From assembly GCA_964567795.1 (NCBI GenBank), contig CAZMOR010000043.1, forward strand, positions 1 through 47,258: a DNA stretch of 47,258 bases, given 5' to 3'. The notes beneath the pieces are model-generated. The model worked only from the letters and a program-made list of their open reading frames with translations. It was not told the origin of the DNA and made no database searches. The position numbers and the translations under genes were made by a program. Positions 2 through 39,794 of this stretch are shown piece after piece (the first letter of the stretch is position 1; the number at the start of each line of letters is the position of its first letter). This DNA comes from an uncultured Verrucomicrobiota bacterium (GTDB lineage Bacteria; Verrucomicrobiota; Kiritimatiellia; CAIQIC01; Lenti-01).

Positions 2-232
2 CTGCCGGCGGATGCCGCGCCGGAACGCCAGGCGGCGGTTGAAAGCGTGCTTCAGGCCCGGCTGGCGCGGCACCGCCTGGAAAGCGCCTCGGTGCGCGAA
101 GGCATCGCGAGCTACCAATACGTGTTCTCGGGCCTGAAGGGGGACATCGCGGCGCTGCAGGCGGAACTGGCGCGCCAGGCCCCGGTGCAGACGCTGAACG
201 TCTTCCTCGACCGCCCCGGTGGCATCCGCTGA
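2..232 (+). CDS. 3' end of a CDS running off the left window edge (hypothetical protein fragment)
   Basis: Frame 2 is open from the window edge to TGA at 230-232. The listed 47..232 ORF is only its Met-onward part. The stop lies 1 nt before the ATG at 234 of the next gene. No recognisable motif. Confidence 0.35.
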   Translation: MPADAAPERQAAVESVLQARLARHRLESASVREGIASYQYVFSGLKGDIAALQAELARQAPVQTLNVFLDRPGGIR

Positions 233-233
233 A

Positions 234-3179
234 ATGAAGTGGCGCGGGGTTTTGTGGTTCGCCCTGCTGCTGGCGGCAGCGGCCGGCCTGACCGGCCTCT
301 ACCGTTCTGATCATTATCTGTTCGAACTCCCGGATGCGTGGGTCCAGAGTTGCGCTAAACGGTTGAGCTTTCACCTGGCCAAGGATGACGGCCTGGCCCT
401 GCTGCTGCCGCTGGATGAAGCGCAGCCCGTGGAATGGATCGGGCGTCGCGAAATCCATTATCCCGGCACCGACCGCGTTCCGGGCCGGTTCGGCTCCGCC
501 CGCCGTTTCGACGGAAAATCCCATGCCGGCATCGAAACCACGACCAAATGGTCATCGCTCGGGCTGAACTACACGCTCTCGTTGTGGCTCAAGCTGGCGG
601 ATGAAGGTCGCGACCAGGAAATCTGGTACACCGACATCCAGGGGCGGCCGACGGGACTCAAGCTGCGCAACGGCCAGATGACCCTTTTCGTTCCGGGCGG
701 GTCGCAAATGCAGTGCGCCGCCTATCCGTTTACTTCCTACGGGCGCTTTGTCCATCTGGCCGCCGTGGTGAGCAGTCCGAACGGCACGGCCCGCCTCTAT
801 GAAAACGGCGAACTGATGGTGGAAGTGCCCGTGGAAGCGGTTGCTCCGCCGGTCCACAACATCGAGTTTGGCAAGATGCGCTGGTACGTGGCCGACAATC
901 CGGTCAGCGGCGATCTTGACGAAATCGCCGCTTGGAACCGGGCGCTCACGCCCCGGGAAATCCGGCGGCTGGCGCAGGCCCGGCAATCCCTTCTGGCCAC
1001 CCTGCAGCCCTGGCGCTACTTGCGCTGGCATTTCGCCCGGACGCTTCAGGCGGAAATTAAAAATATCCTGAAGCTGCTGGACCGGTTCAATCTGTGGCTT
1101 CCAGAAGGCGGTAAAACGGACACCGACCTGCCTGAAATTGTTTTGCATTTCAGTTCCGGCGATGCCCGGCATTTCGTCCACACCCACGAGCAAAGCCTGG
1201 CGTCCGGCCGGCGTACCGACAAGGGCGCCAAATTCCGGCGCATCTTCGCCCAATACGAAGGCAAAACCGTCGAAGCCCAGCTCCAGTTGGACGGATCGGA
1301 TGATCGATATGAAGCAAGTCGCCGGCCGGGGTTCATTCTGCTCGCGCCCGCTGACGCCCCGGTGTTCGGTGTCCGGCGGCTGCATCTGGTTCCGCCCGAA
1401 AACCTGGCCGAAAACCTCGCGGCTCTCGGCCTTGCCCTGAACCAGAAAAACATCCGGCCGACAATAACGAACGGTCTGTGCCGCCTGTTGATCGGCGGTC
1501 AATCCCGGGGTATTTATTATTTTGAATCGTACGACCAGTTCGGGTTGGAGCCCGGCGAACGTTCGGATGTCACCACGGGATCCGGCAATCGCGACAAGTG
1601 GGGCTGGCTGTTCCGCGCGCTGTCGTCCGTGACTGGATATCCATGCCCCGGAATCAGCCGTTCGGATTTGAAATCCCGCTTGGAACAGGTGCAGCAACTC
1701 CTGGCGAGCGACCTGTACCATCCCTGGAGCCGCCGGGAATGGTCCTGGCGCGTTCACCATTTCTTGTCCGGACCGGCCCCGGCCTGCCCGCGTTGGACGG
1801 AAATCCTATCGCCCTATGCGCTGCTGGGCCGGAATCCTTCGCCGGACTACATTGTGGGCGATCTCGAGTTGCAGGCCGTTCCCGGCCTGCCGTCGGACCT
1901 GGCTTGGAGCAGTTCGCGGCCCGATATAATTGACGACCGCGGCCATGTGCAGCGCCCGGACGGCGACCGGCCCGTCCAGGTTGTGCTCACCGCGAGCCGC
2001 CGTTCCGGCGACACCGTTGAAACCCGACCGCTCCCCTTCCGCGTCATGCCCCGGGACCGCAAGCTGCCGGCGCTGATGCTGTACGTCCGGGAACCCCTGT
2101 CCTTTTTCCGGCGCGCCGATTTCACCGCCCTCTACCATCCGGCCCACGATGAAACCACCGTGCAGTTTCTCGAAGGCGGGCAGGATCGGGGAGCCGGCAT
2201 CAAGCATCACGGCAACACCACGTTCTGGGACTGCCCCGGCAAAAAGCCCCTTTCGCTGGAATTCGACGAGCCCCATCACTTGCTCGACGGTACCGAAACC
2301 CGGCATCTCAATCTGCTCAACGGCTGCGTCGATACCACGCGGCTGAAGAACAAGCTGGCCTACGACCTGTTCCGCGCCTTTGCGAAGGGGGACCAGCCGC
2401 GCTACGCCCCCGAAACCGGCTGGACGGAGGTCTTCATAAACGGAGTGTATTCCGGCGTATATGAAATGAGCACCCGCATCCATGGCGCCATGCTGGGAGT
2501 CGATGAGGAACCGGAACATCCAGAGGCCGCGCCCCTGCTGTTCCGACAGCGGGCCGCGCCCAAGTATTATTTCGCGGAACCCTGGGACGATGAATTCGCG
2601 CAGGTTTTGCCGCCGCCCAAGATGCTGACCCGCAAAGGTGTCATGCTGGACCTGCTGCGGTTTACGAGCCTGGCCAAAACCAACCAGTTTGCGCAAGAGG
2701 CCGCCACCCGCTTCGATTTAGACAACTTGATCGACTATCTGCTGCTGATCAATGCCACGGGGAACGTTGATGGTCGAACGGCCAACTTCTACATGGCCCG
2801 GGACACCGCCCCCGGTTCGGGCTTCTTCATCATCCCCTATGATTTCGACCATTCTTTCGAAGCCCCCTGCTGGCTGAGCAACTTCCTGTATGACCGCCTG
2901 CGCGCCGAAGTCCCGGGATTTGAAGATCGGCTGCGCCGGCGCTGGGCGGAATTGAGGCAAGGGCCGCTGGCCCGAACCGCCCTCGCTGAACGCCTCGGCC
3001 AGATGGCCGCCACGCTGGATGGCTACATGGATTGGGACATGGCCCAGATCGGCGAGACTTCTCCTGCCGCTTATCTGAACGTGGTCGCGGATCTGCAGCA
3101 GAAAATGGCAACACAGCTGGATTTCGTGGATTCCGAACTCGGTTATGCGCCGGCGGGCGCTGCGGCGCCGCAAAACTAG
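234..3179 (+). CDS. Secreted or membrane-anchored LamG (concanavalin-like) + CotH kinase-like domain protein
   Basis: ATG at 234 gives MKWRGVLWFALLLAAAAGL, a signal or anchor. The LamG-like block is LSLWLKLADEG...NGQMTLFVPG...YENGELMVEV...GDLDEIAAWNRALTPREI. The CotH-like block is KKPLSLEFDE...LLNGCVDTTRLKNKLAYDLFRAF...WTEVFINGVYSGVYEMSTRIH...NFYMARD...FIIPYDFDHSF. This is the longest ORF in the region with a normal amino-acid composition. Confidence 0.8.
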   Translation: MKWRGVLWFALLLAAAAGLTGLYRSDHYLFELPDAWVQSCAKRLSFHLAKDDGLALLLPLDEAQPVEWIGRREIHYPGTDRVPGRFGSARRFDGKSHAGIETTTKWSSLGLNYTLSLWLKLADEGRDQEIWYTDIQGRPTGLKLRNGQMTLFVPGGSQMQCAAYPFTSYGRFVHLAAVVSSPNGTARLYENGELMVEVPVEAVAPPVHNIEFGKMRWYVADNPVSGDLDEIAAWNRALTPREIRRLAQARQSLLATLQPWRYLRWHFARTLQAEIKNILKLLDRFNLWLPEGGKTDTDLPEIVLHFSSGDARHFVHTHEQSLASGRRTDKGAKFRRIFAQYEGKTVEAQLQLDGSDDRYEASRRPGFILLAPADAPVFGVRRLHLVPPENLAENLAALGLALNQKNIRPTITNGLCRLLIGGQSRGIYYFESYDQFGLEPGERSDVTTGSGNRDKWGWLFRALSSVTGYPCPGISRSDLKSRLEQVQQLLASDLYHPWSRREWSWRVHHFLSGPAPACPRWTEILSPYALLGRNPSPDYIVGDLELQAVPGLPSDLAWSSSRPDIIDDRGHVQRPDGDRPVQVVLTASRRSGDTVETRPLPFRVMPRDRKLPALMLYVREPLSFFRRADFTALYHPAHDETTVQFLEGGQDRGAGIKHHGNTTFWDCPGKKPLSLEFDEPHHLLDGTETRHLNLLNGCVDTTRLKNKLAYDLFRAFAKGDQPRYAPETGWTEVFINGVYSGVYEMSTRIHGAMLGVDEEPEHPEAAPLLFRQRAAPKYYFAEPWDDEFAQVLPPPKMLTRKGVMLDLLRFTSLAKTNQFAQEAATRFDLDNLIDYLLLINATGNVDGRTANFYMARDTAPGSGFFIIPYDFDHSFEAPCWLSNFLYDRLRAEVPGFEDRLRRRWAELRQGPLARTALAERLGQMAATLDGYMDWDMAQIGETSPAAYLNVVADLQQKMATQLDFVDSELGYAPAGAAAPQN

Positions 3180-32836: not shown

Positions 32837-33946
32837 CTACTGCATCTGCTCTTCGCGCCAGTAGACCGGCGTCACTTTCTTGTCCCCCACTTCGAACACC
32901 GCCCACACCCCGCTCTGCACCCCGTGGTCTTCCCCGAGCGACACCACCCGCACGTACTGCCGGTCCGATACCGAGATCTTATCCGCGAATGCCGGATCCA
33001 TGCCCGACTTGCTGATGGCCTCCTCCACGCTGTCGAACCCGTCGTCCTTGGTGTTGGGCAACCCGTCGTCGCCCAGCCGGTATTTCAGCAGGTCGTCCAC
33101 CACCCAGTCGTCCATCATCTTGTCGTTAACGGTCAAGGTCAGCAGCACGTCGCGCGAGGCCGTGTTCACGTTCACCTTGCCGTCGCCGAACGTCGTCAGC
33201 AGGTGCGCGATGCCCTGCAGCGGGGGACTCTTCGGATCCGGCGGCGGACCGCCGTAAACCAGCGCCGGCGTGAAGCCCTTGATCAGCAGCAGCTCGTCCA
33301 CCGTGTCCAGCGGCGCGTTCTTCGGCGCATAGCCCTGCTCCTTGTAATACGCGTCGTCCTCTTCTGCACCGTTAATTCGGTGATCTTTATTATCATCGGT
33401 CCAATCCATGAAACAGTCGATCAGCTCGGGCCACTGCTCATCCGGTACGCCGGCCTGGTCCAGCAGTTCCTCCCAGTCCGCATCCCCGAGCTTGTTCACG
33501 TTCCGCCGCCCCGCCTCCGGCAGGATGTCCACTGTCGCCACCGCCTCCCCCTGCTCCACCTTCACCCCCGACACCCCGATGCCGCGCGCCAGGTTTTTCT
33601 CCAGGATGCGCGCCGCCTCCTTGCCCTCGTCGCTCTCCTCGAACGCGCTCGGTTCAAAGCTTTTCGCCAGCAGGAACTTGGCATATTCCACGCCGCCGCG
33701 CGCGGCCACCAGCGCCTTCACCCGCTTCCGCGCATAGGAGGTGATCCCCGCCTCCACGTGCATCTCGTACGCCATCCCGCCCACCAGCAGGCTCAGGATC
33801 AGCACCATCCACAGCGCCACGATCAGCGCCGCCCCGCGGTTTTCCGCGGCGTACGGTCTGCGGGCTCGCGGCTCGCGGTTTTTCCACAGTGTGGACCCGC
33901 CGCGGCGGGTTCCACAGTGTGGAAAAATGAGGCAAAGTTTTTCCAT
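32837..33946 (-). CDS. gspK: Type II secretion minor pseudopilin GspK-like
   Basis: ENRGAALIVALWMVLILSLLVGGMAY is a GspK-type N-terminal helix. The GspK core reads DILPEAGRRNVNKL...FMDWTDDNKDHRINGAEEDDAYYKEQGYAPKNAPLDTVDELLLIKGFTP...VNVNTASRDVLLTL. The start is uncertain. The ATG at 33946 is the closest canonical start upstream of the helix. The ATG at 33994 would give an ATGA overlap with gspJ but translates the repeat array. The 595-aa track ORF is over-extended. Confidence 0.75.
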   Translation of the reverse strand: MEKLCLIFPHCGTRRGGSTLWKNREPRARRPYAAENRGAALIVALWMVLILSLLVGGMAYEMHVEAGITSYARKRVKALVAARGGVEYAKFLLAKSFEPSAFEESDEGKEAARILEKNLARGIGVSGVKVEQGEAVATVDILPEAGRRNVNKLGDADWEELLDQAGVPDEQWPELIDCFMDWTDDNKDHRINGAEEDDAYYKEQGYAPKNAPLDTVDELLLIKGFTPALVYGGPPPDPKSPPLQGIAHLLTTFGDGKVNVNTASRDVLLTLTVNDKMMDDWVVDDLLKYRLGDDGLPNTKDDGFDSVEEAISKSGMDPAFADKISVSDRQYVRVVSLGEDHGVQSGVWAVFEVGDKKVTPVYWREEQMQ

Positions 33947-33990
33947 GGTGTGGAAAATCCGCCGAAAGTTTTTCCATTCCGTGGAAAAAA
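33876..33990. repeat. Four tandem units of about 31 bp, each carrying a TTTTCCA-N5-TGGAAAA type palindrome
   Basis: The palindromic cores are TTCCACagtGTGGAc (33882-33896), TTCCACagtGTGGAA (33910-33924), TTCCAtggtGTGGAA (33941-33955) and TTCCAttccGTGGAA (33972-33986). Spacings are 28, 31 and 31 bp. Units 3 and 4 share the flanks aaagtttttcca...gtggaaaa. The array is locally AT-rich, lies at the gspJ-stop/gspK-start junction and overlaps the annotated gspK 5' end. Confidence 0.85.
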
Positions 33991-34737
33991 TCATGGGGCA
34001 GTCTCCGGCTTTTGGCTCGGATTGTTGGTCACGGTGGCCACCGGCTGCGTCCCGCCGGTGGTGTCCGTACCGCTTGCCTCGCCCGTGTCGGTTGTGCGGT
34101 CGCGGTTCTCGCGCGCCGGAATCTCCGGCGCCACTTCCAGCTCCACCACCCGCTGCAATTCCAGCTCCTCGTCGAATTCCTTGCGCTTTTTCATCTTCAG
34201 CGTCACGCGCACGAGCTTCGGCAGCGAATTCGTCTCCTCCCAGTCGTGGCTCCAGGAATCCAGGTCGAAGTCGTACCACTCGCAGTCGAAATCCTCGACC
34301 TGCGCGCACGCCATCCAGGGCTGGGCGTCGCGCTCGTCCATGTCTTCCGCCAGGTGCGGCCACGCCCGCACCGCCAGCCCGTGTTCGCCCTCCACGCGCT
34401 CGACCGATACCGACACCCGGTGCAGCCCGTTCCGCAGCGGCGAATCCGGCGGCAGGAACGCCGAGCCGCTGGTCACCCAGCTCGCCTTGCCGTTCTCCAG
34501 CCAGAACCCGAACGCCGACGGCTTCGAGGGAAACCATGCCGCTCCGCGCAGCGTGGTCACCAGCTGGTCCATCGCGAATTCCCCGTAGTGCAGCTGCTCC
34601 AGCAGTTCCCCCCCGCGCGTCCACGCCTTCGTCACGCCCCAGAAGGCGCTGCCGGCCACCGCCATCGCCAGGCTGAAGATCGCCAGCGAGATCAGCAGCT
34701 CCAGCAGCGTGAAACCGTTTGGCCGCCGGGTCCGCAT
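33991..34737 (-). CDS. gspJ: Type II secretion minor pseudopilin GspJ-like with Thr/Pro/Glu-rich C-terminal tail
   Basis: The ATG at 34737 gives MRTRRPNGFTLLELLISLAIFSLAMAVAGSAFWGV (prepilin cleavage/methylation motif G|FTLLE). It occupies the position after gspI. The tail reads TTDTGEASGTDTTGGTQPVATVTNNPSQKPETAP. There is a TGATG 1-nt overlap with gspI. Confidence 0.6.
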   Translation of the reverse strand: MRTRRPNGFTLLELLISLAIFSLAMAVAGSAFWGVTKAWTRGGELLEQLHYGEFAMDQLVTTLRGAAWFPSKPSAFGFWLENGKASWVTSGSAFLPPDSPLRNGLHRVSVSVERVEGEHGLAVRAWPHLAEDMDERDAQPWMACAQVEDFDCEWYDFDLDSWSHDWEETNSLPKLVRVTLKMKKRKEFDEELELQRVVELEVAPEIPARENRDRTTDTGEASGTDTTGGTQPVATVTNNPSQKPETAP

Positions 34738-35162
34738 CAGAGCACCTTCGGCTTCAGCGTGCGCACGCCGTCGTTGTTCTTGGGCACGTACAGCATTTGG
34801 GTCACTTCCTCCGCCGAACGTTTCTCGCCCTGCGCCCAGCTCACGCGGGTCGTCATGCGGAACAGCCCCTCCTGCTGCTCGTCGTCCGCCCCCAGGTCCT
34901 CCAGCGTGCGCGTCCAGCTCCACCCCGCCGGCCCGCCTGAAAAACTGCCCGATTCCGTCTCCGCCTGGATTTCATCCTTCAGCCGCAGCGGGCTTTCCAC
35001 GTCCACCCGTCCCAGCATCCGCCGCGCCAGTTCGTAGTTGCGCGCCTGCCGCACCACCGCCAGCGACCGCGAGGCCGCCCCCACCAGCGCCCCCAGCGCC
35101 ACGCCGAGGATCACCACCGCCATCAGCACCTCGACCAGCGTCATGCCCCGGCGCCGGTTCAT
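34737..35162 (-). CDS. gspI: Type II secretion minor pseudopilin GspI-like
   Basis: 141 aa. MNRRRGMTLVEVLMAVVILGVALGALVGA is a prepilin-type N-terminus. Size and position are typical of GspI. It has an ATGA overlap with gspH. Confidence 0.65.
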   Translation of the reverse strand: MNRRRGMTLVEVLMAVVILGVALGALVGAASRSLAVVRQARNYELARRMLGRVDVESPLRLKDEIQAETESGSFSGGPAGWSWTRTLEDLGADDEQQEGLFRMTTRVSWAQGEKRSAEEVTQMLYVPKNNDGVRTLKPKVL

Positions 35163-39366: not shown

Positions 39367-39794
39367 TGCCCCGTCCAACCCCCATCACCCGCTACCGCCC
39401 TCATCCGCTCCCGGTTATTTATGGGCTGGCAGTCATGGCCTTCGCTGCCTGGGACTGGTGTCGGGAACCGTTTTGCTCCGTCAATAATACTATTTTGTTT
39501 TTCGGCGGAATGTTTTTACTGATTTTTCTCCCCAACGTAACGGTTTCCGATGAGGAATTGGTCGTTTCCTGGGTTTTCGGTCTGTACAAACGCCGGACAT
39601 CCTTGTCATCGATTGTGGAAATCAAGAACGCAACCGGTCGCGGCAGAGGTGCGGCAATTTTGTGCCTTTGCATCGCCAACGGCAAGCCCTGCAATATCTT
39701 CCTGGTTACGCAAACGCGTTTGGCCAGGTTCGTGCAGGACATCCGCTCCCGGTTGAAACATCCTTCCGTCCCATCCGGCGCGCCGGCCCCATAA
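39366..39794 (+). CDS. Small two-TM membrane protein (PH-like C-terminal part), lower GC than its surroundings
   Basis: The ATG at 39366 overlaps the previous TAA by 1 nt (TAATG). Hydrophobic segments are VIYGLAVMAFAAW and ILFFGGMFLLIFL. There are AT-rich stretches such as tcaataatactattttgtttttcggcggaatgtttttactgatttttctcc. Confidence 0.45.
   Translation: MPRPTPITRYRPHPLPVIYGLAVMAFAAWDWCREPFCSVNNTILFFGGMFLLIFLPNVTVSDEELVVSWVFGLYKRRTSLSSIVEIKNATGRGRGAAILCLCIANGKPCNIFLVTQTRLARFVQDIRSRLKHPSVPSGAPAP

Follow-up and report, generated by a model that had tools for sequence, protein, structure and literature searches.

A palindromic repeat array at the gspJ/gspK junction of an uncultured Kiritimatiellia bacterium, probably a local cluster of a dispersed, translation-tolerant repeat family

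Four copies of an AT-rich palindrome lie in tandem at the junction of the pseudopilin genes gspJ and gspK in an uncultured Verrucomicrobiota bacterium of the Kiritimatiellia (assembly GCA_964567795.1, contig CAZMOR010000043.1, positions 1 to 47,258; this whole stretch of 47,258 nucleotides is called the window below). The array is probably a local cluster of a repeat family that is dispersed over the clade, resembles the repetitive extragenic palindromic sequences (REPs) and tolerates translation. It sits in frame within the predicted, probably cleaved leader of pre-GspK, and we do not regard it as a switch specific to gspK.

Results

The four palindromic units have the form TTTTCCAC-N3-GTGGAAAA, measure about 19 bp each and span positions 33880 to 33990, directly 3′ of the gspJ stop codon, with spacings of 28, 31 and 31 bp (Table 1). 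Tandem Repeats Finder called a period-31 array at 33910-33989. An original prediction, made from the letters of the window, had described the same cores and spacings, the 8-bp arms of unit 4, the position directly at the gspJ stop and the AT-richness of the block, and a renewed reading of the sequence bore out each of these; the GC content is 0.49 at 33876-33994 compared to 0.65 for the window. TTCCAY-N3-GTGGAA, with at most one mismatch allowed, matched four times in the 47 kb, each time at an array unit, where 0.39 matches were expected by chance and none of 100 shuffled sequences equalled the count. As also predicted, no further repeat units are found elsewhere in the window. A related half-unit claimed at 39614, however, is at chance level, with 10 one-mismatch matches to the 9-mer versus 5.8 expected. 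The units are not uniform: unit 2 is without the left T-run, and unit 1 is imperfect, with a right arm TGGAC. The odd 28-bp spacing of units 1 and 2 is due to a GC-rich palindrome, CCCGCCGCGGCGGG, which occupies their spacer and loosely resembles the ATCCCGC-N4-GCGGGAT found in the long spacers of other arrays.

Such other arrays are numerous. At least 114 stretches matched a pattern of two units, and all but about two of them came from assemblies of the window's clade, labelled Kiritimatiellia, Kiritimatiellae, Verrucomicrobia, Lentisphaerae or Opitutia. One metagenome-assembled genome held at least 12 arrays and several others at least 6-8, and among the listed matches only one of the at least 114 stretches was a gspJ/gspK junction (L025). 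The arrays comprise 2-11 units, and neighbouring units are spaced by 22 bp (n = 116), 30-32 bp (n = 264), 40-43 bp (n = 15) or 49-52 bp (n = 6), with almost no other values. A position weight matrix of 453 units gave the consensus TTTTCCAC-R-S-N-R-TGGAAAA, a 19-bp palindrome that recurs as a repeat unit of 31 bp or, shortened, of 22 bp, with partly conserved spacers of 12 or 3 nt. The spacer of the 31-bp unit is semi-conserved and reads AA(C)TTTT.CGCGATTT or its reverse complement. In some long spacers a second palindrome module recurs, ATCCCGC-N4-GCGGGAT or AATCCTGC-N4-GCAGGA (42-43-bp spacers of L006, L007, L050, L061, L102, L079 and L105), so that the arrays are modular, as are the bacterial interspersed mosaic elements (BIMEs). 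The polarity, given by units with one CAT instead of CAC half-site, was uniform in 93 arrays and mixed in 13; the units are direct repeats. It correlated neither with gene direction (64 units versus 57) nor with local GC skew (Fisher p = 0.37). In L026 and L030, neighbouring 31-bp units are identical. Matches to the pattern in MetH (L053), in a DAHP synthase (L094, 7352) and in Richelia (L063) were rejected as native sequences that fit by chance and do not belong to the family. Literature searches that combined Kiritimatiellia with repeat terms returned no description of this repeat family. Two IMG/VR contigs classed as viral share a three-unit array just after a gene end (L200, 10050-10117; L201, 3831-3898), and these contigs are probably host DNA, but may also be prophage or misclassified.

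The gsp genes of the window, gspG, H, I, J and K (Pfam T2SSG, N_methyl, weak T2SSJ, T2SSK_1st), all lie on the minus strand. Public gene callers start gspK at the ATG of the ATGA overlap with gspJ on five metagenome contigs, which places the array inside the called gspK open reading frame (ORF), upstream of the conserved RGAALIVALW. The array then makes up most of a 54-codon pre-GspK leader, the predicted end of which was set from the processing of GspK/XcpX, reportedly carried out by prepilin peptidase. Five independent contigs of the window organism carry the same four-unit array and an identical 385-aa GspK translation. Ahead of the transmembrane helix, the ATGs at 33994 and 33946 are the only canonical starts in frame, and the latter, as had been noted before, is the sole one between ATG 33994 and the helix.

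The junction was compared across 80 metagenome loci encoding GspK relatives. GspK homologues of 53-82% identity stem mostly from assemblies labelled Kiritimatiellia, Kiritimatiellae, Lentisphaerae, Verrucomicrobia or Opitutae. Their N-termini hold between 0 and about 9 peptide units, of the kinds FSTxWK, F(F)HxxEK/N and FPxxGK, one for each reading frame of TTTTCCAC-NNN-GTGGAAAA. In remoter homologues the peptides FSNxWK, FQSLEK and FPxxGK are frames of TTTTCCAA-NNN-TTGGAAAA. Since the units are read in all three frames and in variable number, it is the DNA palindrome that is conserved and not the peptide, in agreement with the original prediction. Relatives at 71-84% GspK identity mostly have 2-11 CAC-type units directly after the gspJ stop, and those at 40-58% identity have pure TTCCAA-N3-TTGGAA arrays with the same 22/31-bp spacing. 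Across the GspK relatives the unit number at the junction ranges from 0 to 11, with no units in L123, L134 and L138-L140 (68-83% identity).

At 20 of the 21 array-bearing junctions, the gspJ TGA overlaps an NTG start (as ATGA or GTGA) that shares the frame of the GspK core. Fifteen different lengths, from 93 to 357 nt, separate start and core, and every one is a multiple of 3; since one added unit of 22 or 31 bp moves the frame by a single base, such regularity requires selection on the reading frame. Between array and helix there is usually no start codon in the relatives, and a GGAGG-like Shine-Dalgarno sequence upstream of the NTGA is conserved with or without an array. The preserved frame, the NTGA overlap and the usual lack of a later start indicate the ATGA as the start of gspK and, as far as sequence can tell, translation of the repeat within pre-GspK.

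Arrays at other loci are likewise compatible with translation. Of all six frames across arrays, 81% are stop-free, compared to 16% in composition-matched shuffles and 66% in the neighbouring GC-rich DNA, and in the 31-bp-type spacers stop-type trinucleotides number 56 against an expectation of 376. At other arrays between co-directional genes, the downstream frame was open with a start at the upstream stop in 18 of 51 cases, versus 7 and 2 for the control frames. Arrays also occur inside genes. One is spanned by an unbroken alignment to the TatD Pfam model (positions 1-253), others lie in frame inside Amidohydro_1 and NTP_transferase domains, and in TilS and an OppB-like permease they fall between Pfam domains. 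The arrays in the NTP_transferase gene (L048, 3416-4255; L112, 944-1789) and in the OppB-like permease gene (L015, 3572-4828; L101, 165-1517) each occupy the same position in two assembled genomes; recurrence in a second genome means that these insertions were inherited and tolerated. A 115-residue array-encoded leader, used as a protein query, retrieved only 6 small hypothetical proteins and was uninformative on other gene contexts. These database proteins (P0121-P0126, 73-165 aa) match the array-encoded leader peptide and are probably translations of intergenic arrays rather than real genes.

The genomic context of the arrays was assessed with a self-trained codon-score gene finder, which matched the public calls around gspK. 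The genes on either side of an array were co-directional in 52 cases, convergent in 19 and divergent in 11, and the distance to each was usually 0-50 bp. An array faces the 5′ end of 78 genes, which matched 101 different Pfam families, and a regulon test of these 78 genes found no shared function; the downstream genes are diverse housekeeping genes such as pheS (4 cases), trpD, alaS, purA, dnaE and ruvB. For 33 of 121 arrays a homologous flanking gene is common to arrays at different loci, and conservation of array position is therefore general. REPs have been described as lying mostly between unidirectional and convergent ORFs, with some inside genes (Di Nocera et al. 2013, PMC3733652); the distribution of the arrays matches this description and not that of promoter-linked operators.

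Repeats of other kinds, unrelated to this family, occur at the same gspJ/gspK junction in distant relatives (L190-L194, L184, L185, L133, L145). They fall within the 100-300 bp that precede the GspK core, and among them are ATCCCCTCC..GGAGGGGT palindromes, tandems of 7-mers, for example of AATCGTC, a T-rich block and tandems of CCTTGGA; repeats of various sorts seem to be drawn to the region that encodes the gspK leader. In lineages with TTCCAA-type units, a second array is found about 1.2-1.5 kb upstream of the junction in the same pseudopilin operon (L184, 1413-1532; L191, 1757-1802), in L191 directly before another prepilin-type N-terminus (..GLTLIEVMLAIVILGV). On L183 (1-730, metagenome contig Ga0075120_10032540), a 154-aa ORF (106-570, plus strand) just upstream of gspJ has the HUH and Y..NPV motifs typical of tyrosine transposases of the IS200 type or the REP-associated (RAYT) type. 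It is bracketed by direct repeats of about 100 bp that hold the palindrome GGACGTTGGGGACAACGTCC and has the look of a REPtron-like element belonging to another repeat family, inside the pseudopilin operon.

The features of the window junction are collected in Table 1. Two features follow the array along gspK transcription, at lower plus-strand coordinates and within the part that encodes the leader: a perfect hairpin, CCGCGG-TTTT-CCGCGG, and a 7-bp tandem, GGCTCGC x 2.3, at 33834-33849 and 33863-33878. The neighbouring genes in the window are the other gsp genes, a glycosyltransferase gene and a Na/Pi transporter gene. The GC skew of the window is near zero (-0.11 to +0.07) over 1-32 kb and strongly negative (-0.09 to -0.33) in all that lies beyond about 33 kb, irrespective of gene strand, without a sign change at the array.

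Table 1. Features at the gspJ/gspK junction of the window
Feature	Position	Strand	Remarks
gspK	32837..33994	-	385 aa as called on five public contigs; Pfam T2SSK_1st, E = 7.6e-12
Pre-GspK leader	33833..33994	-	54 codons, MIFSTEWKNF...AENRG; ends at predicted prepilin-peptidase site RG↓AALIVALW
Unit 1	33880..33898	.	TTTTCCACAGTGTGGAccc; core 33882-33896; right arm degenerate; read from sequence, pattern match
GC-rich palindrome, spacer of units 1 and 2	33896..33909	.	CCCGCCGCGGCGGG; sequence, folding, spacer comparison
Unit 2	33910..33927	.	TTCCACAGTGTGGAAAAA; core 33910-33924; sequence, pattern match
Unit 3	33938..33957	.	TTTTTCCATGGTGTGGAAAA; core 33941-33955; in-frame ATG at 33946 inside, minus strand
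Unit 4	33969..33990	.	TTTTTCCATTCCGTGGAAAAAA; core 33972-33986; 8-bp arms TTTTTCCA/TGGAAAAA; starts 5 nt past gspJ stop in gene direction
ATGA overlap	33991..33994	-	gspJ stop TGA 33991-33993; gspK start ATG 33992-33994
gspJ	33991..34737	-	248 aa as publicly called; Pfam N_methyl and weak T2SSJ
GGAG, Shine-Dalgarno-like	34003..34006	-	8 nt upstream of ATG

Discussion

If the array is a local cluster of a dispersed, REP-like family, it would be transcribed with the pseudopilin operon, right after the ATGA overlap, and translated as most of the 54-residue pre-GspK leader, which prepilin peptidase would then remove at RG↓AALIVALW, as is known for GspK/XcpX. A leader that is removed would leave the site permissive for insertions, and selection would need to keep only the frame and the absence of stops. 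We infer that at gspK the array is largely a tolerated passenger. The hairpins, which would start 5 nt past the ATG, may make GspK synthesis depend on ribosomes arriving from gspJ by translational coupling, and such a dependence is probable. Arrays may grow by local duplication of units or through a factor that recognises the palindrome; because neighbouring units are identical in L026 and L030, local duplication is the probable route. A minor pseudopilin appears able to keep its function with a leader that is 50 to more than 100 residues long.

Several points weigh against this reading. Sequence is the whole basis for both the translation of the array and the cleavage of the leader. The family scan applied a strict two-unit pattern to metagenome-assembled contigs of one genome per species, and its counts are lower bounds; the context counts rely on a crude gene finder, and the window organism itself contributes one array, seen in 47 kb, and no second. 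Neither a cognate transposase nor a binding protein was found, the transposase having been sought by regular expression near arrays only: a RAYT-type (Y1 HUH) pattern of HUH and Y..NP motifs, run over the fetched loci, returned one ORF, that of L183, which goes with an unrelated palindrome. The GTAG and CGTC tags of the two large REP superfamilies are absent from the weight matrix. Finally, the strong conservation of motif and position at 40-84% GspK identity, the symmetric CAC to CAA switch and the spacing steps of about 10 bp suggest a selected function beyond passive tolerance, for example a protein on one face of the DNA.

One alternative is that the arrays are binding platforms for a clade-specific protein recognising the palindrome in double-stranded DNA (nucleoid-associated, chromosome-organising, or similar to gyrase or integration host factor), with the units stacked on one face of the helix. 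Such platforms would be compatible with the arrays also being translated. Almost all spacings fall near 22, 31, 41-42 or 51 bp, and spacers of these lengths are diverse in sequence; both half-sites switch together between lineages, from CAC..GTG to CAA..TTG; motif and position are kept across deep divergence; and the polarity of an array is unrelated to transcription direction or GC skew. Unit positions 6 and 10 moreover favour non-pairing combinations (C-A 144 and T-G 116 versus T-A 14), an excess that argues against simple selection for hairpins. However, no candidate protein is known, and the 42-43-bp class is largely due to the inserted second palindrome module, so that the spacing pattern may reflect modular structure and not helical phasing. 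The identical 31-bp duplicates of L026 and L030 look like slippage rather than selection, and the 28-bp spacing in the window is off phase. On balance we consider binding platforms unlikely. The same low probability is given to a wider form of this idea, in which the arrays are the cis half of a chromosomal system of the Kiritimatiellia with a co-evolved, clade-specific protein that recognises the 19-bp palindrome. Co-evolution of that protein would explain the concerted switch of both half-sites, and arrays at long-held orthologous sites would provide phased platforms for binding, or landing pads where units are added, shaped to be stop-free in six frames and thereby allowed places within operons and genes.

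A role at the RNA level is somewhat less probable again. Here the four hairpins at the start of the gspK coding region would prevent gspK from being initiated independently, tie its translation to that of gspJ, or change the stability or processing of the mRNA. The array folds strongly as a single strand (sense strand, -77.8 kcal/mol over 171 nt; z-scores of -6.7 for this strand and -7.7 for the other), the first hairpin begins 5 nt past the ATG, and the ATGA overlap and the GGAG are conserved. In E. coli, REPs near stop codons and within operons affect the fate of the mRNA. According to a review of REPs, transcription is plausible for many of them, with a role as RNA elements (PMC3733652). 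Against a role of this kind, the G-U-capable strand of the CAT units is not preferentially the mRNA strand (64 versus 57) and in the window is the antisense strand, and the same arrays lie between convergent genes and inside enzyme genes. A terminator scan gave terminator-like matches away from the units and no terminator-like U tract, and an Rfam search of 33000-35000 yielded sub-threshold noise from microRNA models and no family match. RNA-level control is possible as a side effect. Of the multimeric binding array or set of RNA hairpins originally proposed, the strong single-strand folding stands, but an action specific to gspK is not supported.

That specific action, an array of operators or an internal promoter for a multimeric regulator of gspK or of the pseudopilin operon, is very improbable. 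The palindromic units, their phased spacing, the AT-rich block and the conserved junction position in relatives would all suit it. Yet about 112 genuine family stretches lie elsewhere among the listed matches, 19 arrays are between convergent genes and several inside genes, the downstream genes share no function, and the array falls within an ORF of preserved frame. A scan of 33000-35000 for sigma-70-like promoters found none. The genome-wide pattern search that had been proposed as a check found the motif at random positions, an outcome that the original prediction itself had named as counting against it. The frame preserved at 20 of 21 junctions points indirectly to a second outcome so named, translation of the repeat as part of GspK, for which the prediction had asked for proteomic evidence. 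The idea of an operator, promoter or translational control point particular to gspK is therefore largely refuted by the genome-wide distribution, with the same arrays present at many unrelated loci.

Phase variation, in which gain or loss of a single 22- or 31-bp unit shifts the frame and switches GspK and secretion on or off, is no more credible. Both lengths leave a remainder of 1 on division by 3, and the units, 0-11 in number among relatives, are in the 5′ coding region directly after the start. Nevertheless, 20 of 21 junctions are in frame, the five contigs of the window organism agree in array and GspK, and the same kind of array is present in tatD, tilS and other housekeeping genes, for which a switch is implausible.

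A cluster of DnaA boxes, as a replication origin or a datA-like titrating locus, is most improbable and was rejected: although TTTTCCACA fits the consensus TTWTNCACA and the array holds three of the window's five perfect matches to it (0.91 expected by chance over the window), the family has A (46%) or G (49%) at box position 9 and C or T before it, sister lineages use TTCCAA, arrays are many per genome (at least 12 in one) and in contexts of every kind, no negative-to-positive change of GC skew occurs at the array, and no dnaA or dnaN is among the genes called nearby. A CRISPR array, which would have repeats of 23-47 bp and unique spacers about as long, was likewise rejected, with spacers here of only 3 or 12 nt that are partly conserved and no cas genes among the genes called nearby.

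With the array read as a cluster of a dispersed, REP-like family, the odd N-termini (FSTPWKN.., FFHTMEK.., FPHCGK..) of GspK and of other proteins of the clade would be translated DNA repeats and not protein motifs, and some small 'hypothetical proteins' of the clade would likewise be translated repeats. A REP-type, translation-tolerant repeat family similar to the Rickettsia palindromic elements (RPEs) is thereby added to a little-studied phylum. Its unusual traits are 19-bp units at 22/31-bp spacing, near freedom from stops in six frames, long-kept positions and a lineage-wide symmetric change of the half-sites, and together they suit the family to studies of the spread and recognition of repeats like these.

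Comparison with known repeat systems

The family falls outside the defining features of REPs and BIMEs, of RPEs and of mycobacterial interspersed repetitive units (MIRUs) alike, and shares traits with each of them. With REPs and BIMEs it has in common a short palindromic stem-loop unit (about 20-40 bp there, a 19-bp palindrome here), many dispersed and often clustered copies that lie mainly between co-directional or convergent genes and occasionally within genes, and a family sequence that varies by lineage. The two large REP superfamilies are, however, defined by a GTAG or CGTC tag (PMC3733652), whereas the units described here have no such tag and are flanked by TTTT and AAAA. A RAYT transposase flanked by these repeats was not found by regular expression in the fetched loci. 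The units are arranged head to tail with a single polarity per array, whereas those of REPs and BIMEs alternate; they keep a fixed spacing of 22 or 31 bp, are far more AT-rich than the host genome and strongly avoid stop codons in six frames.

RPEs insert in frame (PMC10969869). They resemble the present family as palindromic repeats found in frame in unrelated protein genes and tolerated there as extra peptide. An RPE, however, is a single element of about 100-150 bp with one conserved peptide, compared to arrayed 19-bp units read in three frames here, and the phylum is different.

MIRUs are reportedly tandem, non-palindromic units of 46-101 bp at dispersed intergenic sites within operons, with small ORFs said to overlap the flanking stop and start codons and so to preserve translational coupling. 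Likewise, the repeat ORF described here overlaps the upstream stop, with translation predicted to be continuous into the downstream gene (20 of 21 junctions at gspK, 18 of 51 at other co-directional arrays), and the copy number varies at fixed loci. The family differs from MIRUs in its palindromic 22/31-bp units and in the in-frame fusion of the array to the downstream gene, with no separate ORF.

Finally, the predicted pre-GspK leader agrees with those of type IVb prepilins and GspK in being N-terminal, in ending in Gly ahead of a hydrophobic helix and in its expected removal by the peptidase. The usual leaders of the type II secretion system are about 6-10 residues long; the one described here has 54 residues, and up to about 115 in relatives, and would be made of translated DNA repeats.

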